64,000 nucleotides of DNA from Deltaproteobacteria bacterium (lineage in GTDB: Bacteria > Desulfobacterota > Binatia > UBA1149 > JAJCZL01), in the NCBI GenBank assembly GCA_029262415.1, contig JAJCZL010000058.1:135712-199711 (forward strand), in the 5' to 3' direction. The notes under the pieces are model-generated. The model was not told where the DNA came from. It ran no database searches and worked only from the letters and a program-made list of their open reading frames with translations. Positions 19,175 to 48,584 of this stretch are shown here, piece by piece (position 1 is the first letter of the stretch; every line of letters begins with the position of its first letter). A program made the position numbers and the translations under genes.

Positions 19175-19378
19175 CTGTGGCGTCTCTCTCAAACTCGCGG
19201 CGACGGCAAACGAGCGCTTTCTTGGCGAGGACGACGAGCACGACGAGCACGGTGAGGATGGAGACGGCGGCGCCAAGCGTGCCTGGCAGCAACTGGCAGT
19301 GAAGGCAAGAAGTCGAGCAGGCAGCCAAAGGGAAAGTGGAGCACGCGCATGGACCGCACGCTGACAGGCCCGGCTGCA

Positions 19379-19405
19379 CATTCCGCGCGGGATGTGCATA
19401 ACCTC
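19379..19405. repeat. 27-bp motif ACATTCCGCGCGGGATGTGCATAACC (core palindrome CATTCCGCGCGGAATG), near-identical to 47802-47828 inside the IS5 remnant
   Basis: 26/27 identity between the two loci, read directly. Confidence 0.4.
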
Positions 19406-19502
19406 GATGACCCGCCGCGCAACCTAGCTCGGCGGTCTCGCGATCGATTTCGCCACATCACTGACAAACTCGCCCGGGCGGGTGAGTCTTGAGTCGGTCT
19501 GA

Positions 19503-33996: not shown

Positions 33997-36327
33997 TCAG
34001 GCCGCACGTTCGACGTCGGTCACACCGTCGTCCTGCGCGCCGGGGCGGCCATAGTACCCGTAGTAGCCGTAGTAGGAGAAGCGGTCTGATCGCGTCGAAA
34101 CACGGTTGAGAACGACGCCGAGAAGTTTCGACTGCATGCGCGTCATGTAGTCGCAGGCTTGTTGCGCGACTCTACGCGGCGTCATACCCGCACGGGTTAC
34201 CAGCAGGCAACCACCACCGAGCCGGTTGCTCAGCACCGGCACATCGGCGAAGCCGAGCGTCGGCGGAGCATCAACTATGATGTGATCGTAGCGATCGTCG
34301 AGTTCGCTGAGCATCGCACCCATACGTGCAGAGTCGAGCAAATCTACCGGGTTGGGCGAAACCGGTCCTGCCGCCACGACGTCTAACCCAGGCTGGTGCG
34401 TCCCGTGGATGATCTGGTCGATCCCCATGTTACCGGCGATGTAGTTGGTAACCCCGGGCGATTGCGGGACCTCGAGCGCGCAATGAACTCGTGGCTTCCG
34501 AAGATCGCAATCGATGATAACGACACGCTTGCCCATCTGCGCAAGTGCGGCCGCAAGGTTTGTGGCAATACAGGTCTTGCCCTCGCTCGGTCGTGCACTC
34601 GTGATCAGCAACCGCGTCGGCAGACCACCTACAGCGGCGAGGAACAGCGACGCGCGTAACGTGCGGATCGCTTCGGCACCTGCCGAGGTCGGCTGCAGTG
34701 AGACTTGCATGTCCGGCGAGGTCGCCTCGCGGCCATCCTCCGCGTCTGCAACGGCAAACTCAGGCACTGTGCCGAGTACCGGCAAGCGCAAGGAACGCTC
34801 GACATCCCCAGGCGTGCTCATCGAGTCGTCCATGTACTCTTGGAAGAAGGCTAGGCCGACTCCGCCAAATAGCCCGAGCATCATCGCCATCGCCATATTA
34901 AGCGGCAAATCCGGCGTATCCGGGTTGAGCGGAACCTCGGGAATATCGACGAGGGTAATATTCGAGGACCGGATAGCCTCGGTGACCTCGACTTCTTTCA
35001 TGCGACGGAGCAGGTCTTCGTAGATCTGCCGGTTGGTATCAACCTCACGGCGCATGATCTTAAAGTCGATCGCCTTGTCTTCGTATATCTGGATGACCTT
35101 GCGCTGGCTCTCGAGTTGGAAGCGAAGCAAGGCTTCACGATCCAACGCTGTACGGAAATCCGCAGCGACGCTGGCCACAATCGTGTCGGCCTGCTCCTGA
35201 ATCGTGTTCTCGATATCGGCGATGCGTGCGTCGAGCACCTTGACCGGCGGGTACTCGGCCGTAAACCGCCCACCAAGCTGCGCGCGCTCGGCACGCGAAG
35301 TCGCCAATTCTTCTTTCAACTTACCGACCAACGGATCGTTGACGATGATCGGCAACGACCAGCGATCGGGGCCCAGCATCTGGTTGTGCAGCGCTTCCAA
35401 CTTTATGCGTTCCGACTCCCCGTTTGTCAGCCGGTTGTTGATGTCGGCAAGGCGCTCGTGGATTACCTCTTCTTCTTGGTCGATCGCGTAGATCTCACGG
35501 CCCTTGGCAAAGGCGTGGAGTTCCAGCTCTGTCTCTTCCAGCCGAGCCTTGGTGACGTCGAGTTGCTTAGAGATAAAGTTACGACCCTGCGCCGCTGCTT
35601 CGATGCGCTGGTCCAACGTCAAGTCGATGTACTCGCGCGCCATCGCATCGGCGACCTTGGCGGCGGTCTCAGGGTCGGGGTTATAAAAACTCAGCTCGAC
35701 CAAAAACGACTTGCGACGCGGTCGAACCGCGATGCTTTCACCGAACTTCTCCAGAAGTTCCTGTTCTTTCTCACGTGCGATGAGCTCAGGATCAGGCTCA
35801 CCGGAAACGATCGATTTGAGCGATGAGACCATCCTTAACACCGTCGACTCGCCCATGCTGTCGCCGTTCAACCAAGGGTCGTTTTCTAAGCCGACCTTCT
35901 CAATGGTGCGCTTGGCTAAGCGGCGACTGGCGAGCAAATCGTACTGGGTCTGAAAGAAGTCGCTGTAAGCCTGCGCGCCTTGCGAGGATTGTTCGACCTC
36001 GTCGAATCCGACCACGTTGGGTCCACCCGGACGGATCTGAAGAAGAGCTGTCGAGCGGTAAAGCGGGGTAGCTGCGAGCGTGAAAATCAGTGCACTCAGC
36101 GCACAAAAACCAAACACCGCAGCGGCTGTCCAACGCCGCCGCAAAATCACCTGCAGGAAATCCCAGAGGTGCGTCTCTCGGCCGCCGAACCCTCCTGGGT
36201 CGGCCGGCGTACCGTACGCAGGCCGGTCGCGGTCGCTGATCGTTCCGGCACGTTCCTGCGCACGGATTTCTGCCGGAACGAACATTCCCGGCGGAAGTGA
36301 GGGTGAAGTGTCCTTACGGTCGGCCAT
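33997..36327 (-). CDS. wzc: Polysaccharide co-polymerase / BY-type tyrosine autokinase (Wzc/EpsB-like)
   Basis: Wzz-type periplasmic domain, Walker A SARPSEGKTCIATNLA, DxD, C-terminal Tyr cluster SYYGYYGYYG. Start at MADRKD (36325-36327). Confidence 0.85.
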   Translation of the reverse strand: MADRKDTSPSLPPGMFVPAEIRAQERAGTISDRDRPAYGTPADPGGFGGRETHLWDFLQVILRRRWTAAAVFGFCALSALIFTLAATPLYRSTALLQIRPGGPNVVGFDEVEQSSQGAQAYSDFFQTQYDLLASRRLAKRTIEKVGLENDPWLNGDSMGESTVLRMVSSLKSIVSGEPDPELIAREKEQELLEKFGESIAVRPRRKSFLVELSFYNPDPETAAKVADAMAREYIDLTLDQRIEAAAQGRNFISKQLDVTKARLEETELELHAFAKGREIYAIDQEEEVIHERLADINNRLTNGESERIKLEALHNQMLGPDRWSLPIIVNDPLVGKLKEELATSRAERAQLGGRFTAEYPPVKVLDARIADIENTIQEQADTIVASVAADFRTALDREALLRFQLESQRKVIQIYEDKAIDFKIMRREVDTNRQIYEDLLRRMKEVEVTEAIRSSNITLVDIPEVPLNPDTPDLPLNMAMAMMLGLFGGVGLAFFQEYMDDSMSTPGDVERSLRLPVLGTVPEFAVADAEDGREATSPDMQVSLQPTSAGAEAIRTLRASLFLAAVGGLPTRLLITSARPSEGKTCIATNLAAALAQMGKRVVIIDCDLRKPRVHCALEVPQSPGVTNYIAGNMGIDQIIHGTHQPGLDVVAAGPVSPNPVDLLDSARMGAMLSELDDRYDHIIVDAPPTLGFADVPVLSNRLGGGCLLVTRAGMTPRRVAQQACDYMTRMQSKLLGVVLNRVSTRSDRFSYYGYYGYYGRPGAQDDGVTDVERAA

Positions 36328-46645: not shown

Positions 46646-46662
46646 GCGCCCCGCCGCAGCAC

Positions 46663-47181
46663 TCAGTGCCCGTGTTGGGGTGATCCGGATATGTGTTCAT
46701 GGCCACCCTCGTCGTCGACACCCGGCGCCGGCCGTAAAACGGGCAGGCTCATCGAGAGCTCCTCTGAGCCGATCCTGAGTTCGAAGGTAAGTTCGCTCTC
46801 GCCGGGCGCAAGAAGGTAGTTTTCTGCGGTGAGGTAGCGCCCTCCCGGGCCGACGGTTAAATCGGTCGTTTTGGTGCTGTCCTCAACCGTACCCTGTACA
46901 CCGTCGACCGGCCGTACCTCCATGAACGAATCAAGGAGGTAGAGACGAAAGGCACCGTTGCCTGCGGCAACCAGTTCCAAGTGGAGGTCGCCAGCCATAC
47001 CGAGTGCGCCACCGTGGGGTGCAACACTGTGGTCGTGGGCCCGGCGAGCGCCGCCGGAGACGCACGATATCGAGGCCAAGGTGAGCATGCAGCCAAGCGT
47101 ACACACCTGCACCAGCATCGGCACCGAGCCCGAAGCGAGAGGACCCCGATCGCTCGGATCGCGAAGCGCAGCCGTATCCAT
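46663..47181 (-). CDS. Secreted His-rich hypothetical protein (possible periplasmic metal-binding)
   Basis: RBS aggag before the ATG at 47181. Hydrophobic segment, then HDH...H...HEH..QHGH. Confidence 0.4.
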   Translation of the reverse strand: MDTAALRDPSDRGPLASGSVPMLVQVCTLGCMLTLASISCVSGGARRAHDHSVAPHGGALGMAGDLHLELVAAGNGAFRLYLLDSFMEVRPVDGVQGTVEDSTKTTDLTVGPGGRYLTAENYLLAPGESELTFELRIGSEELSMSLPVLRPAPGVDDEGGHEHISGSPQHGH

Positions 47182-47271
47182 TTGCCTAACTCCTGACTAG
47201 CCTAGGTCGATAGCCCCCGAACACTACCACCGCAACTGGGCAAAGGAGCTACTAACTGCCGTGCTAGCCGG

Positions 47272-47892
47272 CTAGGGAAGCTCTGCACGAGTCTTTCAAA
47301 ATGAGATAAGTACGTAAGTCGAGCGACTCGTGAGGAGGTTGGGCGATGGGTGAGCAGCGTAGGTTCGCGTCGGTAGCGTGGAGTCGGAAAGGAAAGGTAA
47401 CGCGCCGGGAGCGATTTCTCGCCGAGATGGACGCGGTGATACCGTGGAAGCCGTTGCTGGACGCGATCCCGAGATGAAGCAGGCGATGAAGGGCAAAGCC
47501 TGGTATTTCGGCGTGAAGCTGCACGTGGGGACGGACTGCAAAGGCCGGGTGCATCACGTGACGGCGACCCATGCGGCGACTCATGACATCAGGCAACTGC
47601 CGCATCTGCTGCACGGGGAGGAAGGTGCGCCATCGAGGTCTGGCCAAGAACCTGGCCCGAGCCCACACCATGTTCGGACTGGCAAGTCTGTACAGCGTGC
47701 GCCGTCAGCTACTTCCCAAGGGGGTGCCCCGTGCCGGTTGTGAAGCCGCAAGACAGGCCGGGTAGCGCCGGCCGGCTAGCTTCCGCGAGCTGAAACCGCG
47801 CTACATTCCGCGCGGAATGTGCATAACCGGCGCAAAGTACACCGGCGGCACGATGATCGGTCCGCTCAGTCACTTGTGCAGAGCTTCCCTAG
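47272..47892. mobile_element. Internally deleted IS5-family insertion sequence (613 bp) with perfect 13-bp terminal IRs GGAAGCTCTGCAC (47276-47288 / 47876-47888) and 4-bp CTAG target duplication (47272-75 / 47889-92)
   Basis: IRs and TSD read directly. Internal ORF fragments match IS5 transposase N-terminal, middle and C-terminal segments. Confidence 0.65.
47346..47765 (+). pseudogene. IS5-family DDE transposase remnant in three frames
   Basis: MGEQRRFASVAWSRKGKVTRRERFLAEMDAVIPWKPLLDAIP / KGKAWYFGVKLHVGTDCKGRVHHVTATHAATHDI..LLHGEE / RKVRHRGLAKNLARAHTMFGLASLYSVRRQLL. Confidence 0.6.
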
Positions 47893-48584
47893 AGCGGAAT
47901 CAGAATCGAACACTCGGGCCGTGCGGCTTCAACATTCGCTTCGACTAGCCAGCCGAAGCGGGCGAGAATTCGAGCACCGAGTTTGGCCGATACGTCTTCC
48001 AGAGCGGAGCCCGGCGACCAGGTCTGCTCGGCGATCGAGAACACCTCTAACGCGGGAGCTTGAAGGCGTAGACGTACGCACGTACCAGCGCCAAAACACT
48101 CGGACGTCACGCTGACCTCAGCCTTCATGACGTCTTCGCCAGTCCCGCAACCGATGGCGTCGCCGAGCATGTCGAGGGCGCGATCCAATGGCATGGGATC
48201 GACGGGAATCTCGCGCGATGCGGCATCGCCGAGCACAGTGGGATCAAAAATCGACCGGGCACCGAGGCGTGCGAGAATACGTTCGAGTAGGTCAGCGGCC
48301 GGGACATTGAAAGTGCGAACGTGGACCGGGCGCAGGAGATCGGCCGCACGACTAATAAGCTTGTGGGTGTCACCGATCGAGGCCCGCATACTCTCGGCGG
48401 CCTCCAGGCCGGTGGGATCGCCGCTGACCTTCTCCTCGAGCACCTCGCACCAGAAATACATCCGGTGGACCAGGTTGGCGATGTCGTGCTCAACCTCCCC
48501 CGCGACGCTTTCGAGTTCTTCTTCGGGAAGCGACGGTTCGGTACCAGGCGAGTACCGTGCATGGGTATGTAAAACTTCGGCCAT
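47889..48584 (-). CDS. Hypothetical protein with histidine-kinase-like H-box (degenerate HK paralog?)
   Basis: HDIANLVHRMYFW resembles the DHp H-box of the neighbouring kinase. No clear ATPase boxes. Stop codon coincides with the IS target site. Confidence 0.4.
   Translation of the reverse strand: MAEVLHTHARYSPGTEPSLPEEELESVAGEVEHDIANLVHRMYFWCEVLEEKVSGDPTGLEAAESMRASIGDTHKLISRAADLLRPVHVRTFNVPAADLLERILARLGARSIFDPTVLGDAASREIPVDPMPLDRALDMLGDAIGCGTGEDVMKAEVSVTSECFGAGTCVRLRLQAPALEVFSIAEQTWSPGSALEDVSAKLGARILARFGWLVEANVEAARPECSILIPL

Follow-up and report, generated by a model that had tools for sequence, protein, structure and literature searches.

What is the 613-bp sequence that sits on the stop codon of a histidine-kinase-like gene in the window (the whole 64-kb stretch of DNA analysed here), how did it come to lie there, and can it still move? 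Read directly from the sequence, it occupies positions 47276–47888. We assign it, with a probability of about 0.93, to an IS5-group insertion sequence (IS) that entered a CTAG on an amber stop codon, suffered two internal deletions and kept its ends, so that the present copy is non-autonomous. The features of the element and its surroundings are collected in Table 1.

Table 1. Positions in the window of the element's parts and of the two neighbouring genes (TSD, target-site duplication).
Feature	Position	Strand	Basis
orf172, 172 aa, context gene and not part of the element	46663..47181	-	AGGAG nine bases before ATG
Left TSD copy, CTAG	47272..47275		direct reading
Left terminal inverted repeat GGAAGCTCTGCACGAGT, transposase-proximal	47276..47292	+	matches family consensus GGAAGCTCTGCACAAGT
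Shine-Dalgarno GAGGAGG (47332-47338) and N-terminal transposase fragment, aa 1-41	47332..47468	+	tblastn
Deletion 1 junction, ~364 bp gone	47459..47468	+	MAFFT gap, columns 227-590
Middle transposase fragment DPEMKQAMKGKAWYFG...LLHGEE, aa ~162-214	47465..47621	+	tblastn, MAFFT, Pfam, NCBIfam
Deletion 2 junction, ~209 bp gone	47621..47622	+	MAFFT gap, columns 754-963
C-terminal fragment KVRHRGLAKN...RRQLLP (aa 285-316) and tail	47622..47765	+	tblastn, MAFFT
Perfect palindrome of 18 nt, ACATTCCGCGCGGAATGT, then GCATAACC; right non-coding part	47803..47828		self-BLAST
Right terminal inverted repeat, reverse complement GGAAGCTCTGCACAAGT	47872..47888	-	family consensus matched 17/17
Right TSD copy, CTAG, with the TAG stop of the minus-strand gene at 47889-47891	47889..47892		direct reading
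Host gene, 231 aa, putative divergent stand-alone histidine-kinase core (DHp helix with H-box and CA-like domain)	47889..48584	-	profile, hhalign

The left boundary reads CTAG followed by GGAAGCTCTGCACGAGT (47272–47292), and the right boundary reads ACTTGTGCAGAGCTTCC followed by CTAG (47872–47892). A perfect 13-nt core, GGAAGCTCTGCAC, at 47276–47288 returns as its reverse complement at 47876–47888, and the arms reach 17 nt with one mismatch. Exact inverted repeats of 13 nt are common in this DNA: at a spacing of 60–1500 bp the window holds 11 of them, against about 4 in first-order Markov simulations. A bare 13-nt exact repeat within 1.5 kb is thus not rare and by itself unremarkable, and this is what could be said for a chance inverted repeat around unrelated sequence. 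However, the 21-nt arm made of CTAG and the adjoining 17 nt, with at most one mismatch allowed, is the sole such inverted repeat in the window and appeared in none of 60 simulations. The perfect 13-bp repeats and flanking CTAG of an earlier note on this DNA are therefore borne out. Three collinear transposase segments lie between the arms, as seen by tblastn and MAFFT, and the same end recurs at 108 or more loci in other genomes. Together with the uniqueness of the 21-nt arm, these results refute the chance explanation, whose probability we regard as negligible. A single-mismatch match to the core at 35386 was dismissed as chance, since it stands without element features nearby.

The ends also point to the family. 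The left repeat shares 13 of its 17 bases (our own count) with the left end of E. coli IS5, GGAAGGTGCGAACAAGT, as well as the subterminal ATGAGAT, and an alignment can be made with the left end of IS5A in E. coli K-12 (GGAAGGTGCGAACAAGTCCCTGATATGAGAT versus GGAAGCTCTGCACGAGTCTTTCAAAATGAGAT). Members of the IS5 group carry repeats of about 16–18 bp akin to GGAAGGTGCGAACAAG and a 4-bp duplication YTAR, mostly CTAG. Here the repeats are 17 nt long and CTAG stands on both sides. CTAG is the commonest target of IS5, with 15 of the 24 insertions listed from ISfinder (PMC5493358). The assignment of repeats and target duplication, which the earlier note had exposed to comparison with known IS5-group ends, thus holds.

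For the coding part, we used as reference a 322-aa composite transposase from two partial homologs (P0002 and P0012), and ran tblastn with it against the element. This reference is 46% identical to E. coli InsH1 across its full length. The middle fragment matches Pfam DDE_Tnp_1 (E 4.9e-6), and the joined fragments match the NCBIfam IS5 model transpos_IS5_4 with E 3.2e-14, which is below the model cut-off because the remnant is fragmentary. Full-length relatives hold both DDE_Tnp_1 and the N-terminal domain PF05598. All the defining features of the IS5 group that can be tested here were found, save an intact catalytic triad. The IS5-family assignment is therefore supported by the similarity of the ends, by the 46% identity to InsH1 and by the preferred CTAG target (PMC5493358). 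BLASTN against plasmids gave only 57-bp matches of about 83% to IS5-family genes.

The closest classical comparison is E. coli IS5 itself. Full-length relatives of our element measure 1170–1211 bp (IS5, 1195 bp), encode a single DDE transposase of about 320 aa, begin with GGAAG...ACAAGT, and share with IS5 the subterminal ATGAGAT and the CTAG duplication. They differ in the end, which is GGAAGCTCTGCAC in this clade and GGAAGGTGCGAAC in IS5, and in their hosts, which are GC-rich environmental bacteria (Gemmatimonadota, Acidobacteriota, Binatia and others). The 613-bp copy differs further by the loss of about 573 bp, including the entire catalytic triad. The best named full-length match is to the transposases of the ISXo1 family (54% identity over 99% of the reference), IS5-like elements of Xanthomonas in the NCBI annotation. 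They were compared by protein alone, and at 54% identity they are too distant to be the parent.

What is left of the transposase falls into three pieces. The N-terminal fragment starts with an ATG at 47346 and runs to 47468 with 80% identity to reference residues 1–41. Its native Shine-Dalgarno sequence and ATG are kept, and the open frame stops at 47475–47477, giving a 43-aa ORF. The C-terminal segment (47622–47717) is 78% identical to residues 285–316. These two fragments share one frame (the phase of 47277), and the middle fragment is shifted by one (the phase of 47276). The N-terminal, middle and C-terminal snippets reported before are thus all present by tblastn, but in two frames and not in three.

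The losses between the pieces were delimited in a MAFFT alignment of the element with six relatives of 1069–1189 bp. Four of these (L042, L046, L053 and L055; 1175–1189 bp) are full-length, and L018 is without about 100 bp near its 5' end. The element is collinear with the relatives from end to end, and the collinearity is broken only by two clean gaps between conserved termini, which confirms an internally deleted element with intact ends. With both gaps added, the 613 bp come to about 1186 bp, as long as an intact element. Deletion 1 takes out residues ~42–161 with the first catalytic Asp (IVDATII, aa 142–148). Deletion 2 takes out residues 215–284 with the second Asp (YGDQAY, 218–223) and the Glu (R-x3-E-x6-K, 267–278). 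By motif positions and the InsH1 alignment, all three motifs of the D-D-E triad fall inside the deletions. Since the two deletions remove all DDE residues, the copy is unable to move itself, and judged by its sequence it cannot encode an active transposase any longer. Exact-protein look-ups for four interior ORFs returned no record.

The deletions may have arisen by microhomology: at junction 1, CTGGACGCGATCCCGAG, a shared CGCGATC would link ...LDAI(EPHY) to (A)RDPEM. Internally deleted transposases are frequent in this clade. Nine database proteins (P0048, P0052, P0056, P0058, P0062, P0071, P0094, P0011 and P0057) are in-frame fusions of N- and C-terminal parts. Several left breakpoints of such proteins cluster at residues 39–42 (IPW..LL.LI), where deletion 1 also starts, and this region of the clade's transposases may be a deletion hot spot.

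At the right end, the gene on the minus strand finishes ...CCG CTC TAG, and its TAG lies inside the right CTAG copy. The stop codon of the adjoining gene is thus supplied by the target duplication, as the earlier note had read it. Its ortholog P0126 (locus L111) is 83% identical, likewise 231 aa long and has the same C-terminus, ...ILIPL, with TGA as stop. From the equal length and C-terminus it follows that the insertion neither truncates nor extends the host protein. The following course of events would account for this arrangement. A full-length IS5-group IS of about 1.19 kb, or a derivative of it, would have inserted by DDE transposition at a CTAG overlapping the amber stop. The staggered 4-bp cut would have duplicated CTAG, and in consequence the gene keeps its own stop and an unchanged protein. 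The deletions of about 364 and 209 bp put the transposase pieces out of frame and removed the DDE residues, while both terminal repeats, the binding sites of the transposase, stayed intact. Such a copy can move only with a related transposase acting in trans, and is otherwise a fossil. The element is in these respects a typical decayed IS. The appropriate annotation is pseudogene or remnant of a mobile element, with the kinase-like neighbour left intact.

That neighbour had been called histidine-kinase-like, and on profile evidence the label seems fair. No match to Pfam or NCBIfam was found for the 231-aa protein. Its AlphaFold (AF2) model is poor (pLDDT 44), and profile searches were therefore used instead of a fold search. 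An exhaustive search gave 56 relatives, and in a 35-member alignment His33 of the H-box, Asn37 and Asp129 are invariant. Over its full length, the family profile matches the cytoplasmic cores of ZraS (E 5.5e-6) and EnvZ (E 5e-3), and hhalign aligns the family with the adjacent PAS-HisKA-HATPase kinase over 194 columns (E 2.7e-5). Five family members make weak contact with HisKA, and HATPase_c is touched by one of the 35. The protein belongs to a small family of about 56 representatives of 220–260 aa (P0125–P0181), stand-alone and histidine-kinase-like, with no sensor domain and unrecognised by Pfam.

The contig of P0126, L111, is the only related one. In its region 960–1010, the 231-aa gene and a convergent PAS histidine kinase are 20 bp apart, and the contig is without the element and also without orf172 and the spacer (46646–47271). 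No true empty site was found: with TGA in place of TAG and orf172 missing, this sole relative shows the native length of the protein and yet is not a true empty site. In the window, orf172 lies downstream of the host gene, 90 bp from the left end of the element, and its GC1/2/3 pattern resembles that of the neighbouring genes. Its product has a signal-peptide-like N-terminus, a His-rich C-terminus and no family match.

The position of orf172 and the preserved start of the transposase frame raise the question of whether the remnant has been domesticated, such that the 43-aa ORF or the element DNA would have acquired a use for the host, such as inhibiting transposition or regulating orf172. The native Shine-Dalgarno sequence, the ATG and 41 N-terminal residues are intact, the element lies just upstream of orf172, and in E. 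coli IS5 insertions are able to activate genes next to them (PMC5493358, PMC11894529). However, a scan of the element for promoters (sigma-70-like) and terminators gave nothing beyond chance, the RNA folds of its ends are no better than those of shuffled sequences, the 43-aa ORF was not found conserved elsewhere by exact-protein look-up, and its 41 residues are only part of the N-terminal domain. We consider domestication very improbable.

Regarding the folds, a left-end hairpin that silences read-through, as in other ISs, was rejected, with a fold no better than shuffles (z = -0.8). The right-end RNA fold was no better either (z about -0.8). The left repeat at 47278–47293 is 81% complementary to 47325–47340, the stretch that holds the transposase Shine-Dalgarno sequence.

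The palindrome in the right non-coding part has a counterpart in the window. Self-BLAST gave a 26-nt match of 96% to the palindrome block at 19378–19403, in an unrelated intergenic region, and the repeated motif is ACATTCCGCGCGG(A/G)ATGT followed by GCATAAC(C) (19375–19405 and 47803–47828). A second degraded right end at 19310–19470 was rejected, with similarity beyond the 26-nt block of only about 60%. The block is also read through in the sister protein P0064 (see below) and is absent from the other clade loci (114 loci examined). Possible origins are a repeat of the host, a motif captured by the element, or a further copy of which only this trace survives.

How far the element's relatives extend was followed with the 20-nt end TARGGAAGCTCTGCACRAGT, which was scanned in species-representative genomes. 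It occurs at no fewer than 108 loci in genomes from the environment, whereas by our own calculation chance would give about 4. Among the matches listed, the hosts are metagenome-assembled genomes (MAGs) of Gemmatimonadota, Acidobacteriota, Thermoanaerobaculia, Binatia and several proteobacterial groups, and both ends are present at 32 loci. Six of these paired elements measure 1170–1211 bp, a few are intermediates of 829, 909 and 1069 bp, and 22 are miniatures of 106–320 bp. CTAG on both sides is by far the commonest arrangement among the 32. Outside the termini, the DNA identity of the listed clade loci to the element is 70–80%, at best ~76–80%. A near-identical full-length parent was not found, as nothing above 80% DNA identity appeared among the listed species-representative matches, the metagenomes and the viral contigs. 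None of the 108 listed loci lies in the element's own genome. Metagenome scans with the left-end 23-mer and with the degenerate MKQAMKGKAWYFG pattern gave no match, and neither did a scan of viral contigs with the degenerate pattern. The 613-bp element marks a clade of the IS5 group, widespread and apparently unnamed, whose strongly conserved end GGAAGCTCTGCACAAGT occurs in several phyla of uncultured bacteria and which has many miniature derivatives.

One Woeseia MAG has a pair of 155-bp miniatures on separate contigs (L054, 4896–5050, and L080, 2991–3145) with 98.7% identity, from which it follows that non-autonomous elements with the clade ends were amplified there. A third 155-bp miniature is found at L094, 1470–1624. 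All share the ends and the CTAG duplications, with 94–99% identity, and their interiors have no BLASTN similarity to the 613-bp element. By their sequences, the 155-bp miniatures are evidently a genuine amplified MITE family that uses the clade ends.

Two further observations concern unusual clade loci. The same 20-nt end lies at L003, 1353–1372 (CAWIYM010000007.1), on a 260-kb contig labelled Candidatus Bathyarchaeota archaeon, where either the contig may be wrongly binned or the end may occur across domains. At L023 (837–3177) and L066 (1395–3742), the distance between paired ends is about 2.34 kb, or double that of a normal element. Nested or tandem elements, or a passenger gene inside the element, may account for these pairs.

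Closer to the element, two short NCBI-derived proteins, P0064 and P0124, are read-throughs of sister elements. P0064 (128-kb contig) has the N-terminal region read out of frame across the deletion-1 junction, ...TVEAVAG-x-DP-x-MKQAMKGKAWYFG, and after HHVTA it continues with LPRAETALHSARNVHN; its second deletion is larger and covers deletion 2 of our element. The deletion-1 junction is common to both within a codon, and about 10% of the residues differ. P0124 (40-kb contig) has a different flank, MSAWAVSG/AR versus ...CRASR/AR here, which likewise ends GCTAG. In P0124 the left end is followed at once by GTIVEATIIAAPSSTKNAAKARDPEMKQ, which our copy has lost, and the protein then jumps from CKGRV to APAG. 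With their differing flanks and deletions, P0124, P0064 and the element indicate that the lineage has made two or more insertions and that its copies decayed through differing deletions. As differing deletion intermediates, the three document steps from an IS to a MITE. By its sequence, P0064 may represent either another locus, mobilised after the deletion, or the very site of our element as found in a related strain.

The 613-bp copy may be an in-situ fossil: a full-length copy inserted here, decayed in place by two deletions, never moved in its deleted form and has no active partner. We give this history even odds. It agrees with the single copy in the 64-kb window, where self-BLAST found no second one, with the absence of identical copies from the metagenome and viral scans, with the several deletion patterns in P0064, P0124 and the element, as expected from independent decay, and with the many internally deleted transposases of the clade in the databases. 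Against it, P0064 shares junction 1 despite about 10% residue divergence and another second deletion. An ancestor that already had deletion 1 and then multiplied would agree with this, except if a related strain has P0064 at the orthologous locus. The assemblies bear on the same point. Two Logan contigs of SRR15505517 that contain the flanks of this site (L001, 3020–3043; L112, 1–25) end 23 and 25 nt inside the element. Assemblies usually stop at repeats. The breaks also speak against a solitary fossil, but they are no more than suggestive of the element, or its ends, being repeated in that sample.

The other history is that of an active, MITE-like element, in which a deletion derivative, at least the deletion-1 form, would be mobilised in trans and be one of several copies in the genome. 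We consider this somewhat less probable than decay in place. Both ends are intact and match the family consensus, the clade contains amplified miniatures with the same ends and CTAG duplications, the deletion-1 junction is common with P0064, and the Logan assembly breaks fall at both ends of the element. Against this, the data searched contained no further copy that combines these junctions with another flank, no co-resident intact transposase is known, 613 bp is long for a MITE, and the interior ORF look-ups gave no match.

Prokaryotic MITEs are usually shorter than about 300 bp and have no transposase coding capacity. The 613-bp element has terminal repeats and a target duplication as in the parental IS and no functional transposase, but it is longer and retains three recognisable coding fragments, whereas the clade's miniatures measure 106–320 bp. 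A precedent for mobilisation exists in MITEPsy1 of Pseudomonas syringae. Its presumed source is ISPsy2, an element of the IS5 family; it inserts at CTAG and has been caught in a trapping experiment (PMC3189936). Like our element, it is a non-autonomous derivative, with a left end beginning GGAAG and a 4-bp duplication at CTAG or YTAA (PMC3189936). MITEPsy1 has 100 nt, no coding remnants and multiple copies, and its mobilisation in trans was shown by experiment (PMC3189936), whereas the 613-bp element keeps three transposase fragments. For MITEAba12 and ISAba12 of Acinetobacter, terminal repeats are likewise common to the miniature and a co-resident IS, and trans mobilisation was proposed (PMC6382973). 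MITEAba12 differs in its 9-bp duplication, unrelated ends and length of 113 bp (PMC6382973). By analogy with the precedent within the IS5 family, mobilisation of the 613-bp copy in trans, which the earlier note expected, is plausible.

The position on a stop codon proved to be common in the clade. We took 90 unique CTAG-flanked clade ends (L002–L109, among the matches listed) and looked for an open frame of at least 100 codons with the TAG of the duplication as its stop. Such an ORF adjoins 38 of the 90 ends (42%), compared with 15% for the remaining CTAG sites of these loci (Fisher p = 6e-9). Shifted-frame controls at the clade ends gave 13% and 22%. With a threshold of at least 200 codons, the values are 34% for clade ends and 7% for other CTAG sites. 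Landing on an amber stop is typical of this clade.

CTAG is palindromic and has TAG on both strands, and its duplication regenerates the stop; insertions at gene ends would thus be coding-neutral 'safe havens' where CTAG is scarce, as in GC-rich DNA. In the 64-kb window CTAG occurs 65 times, whereas the base composition predicts 226. The stop pattern is compatible with target preference as well as with purifying selection, and the data cannot separate them. It is doubtful that the clade and its miniatures systematically target amber stops, that is, by a real target choice and persistence strategy beyond purging by selection. If they did, the 613-bp element would be one example of a general stop-landing rule. 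The presence of about 40% of ends on amber stops offers a simple, testable account of how CTAG-specific elements persist in compact genomes. A literature search found no description of this landing pattern, which is not proof of novelty. At one locus (L024), two long ORFs converge on a 119-bp miniature from either side, and each of them ends in the duplication.
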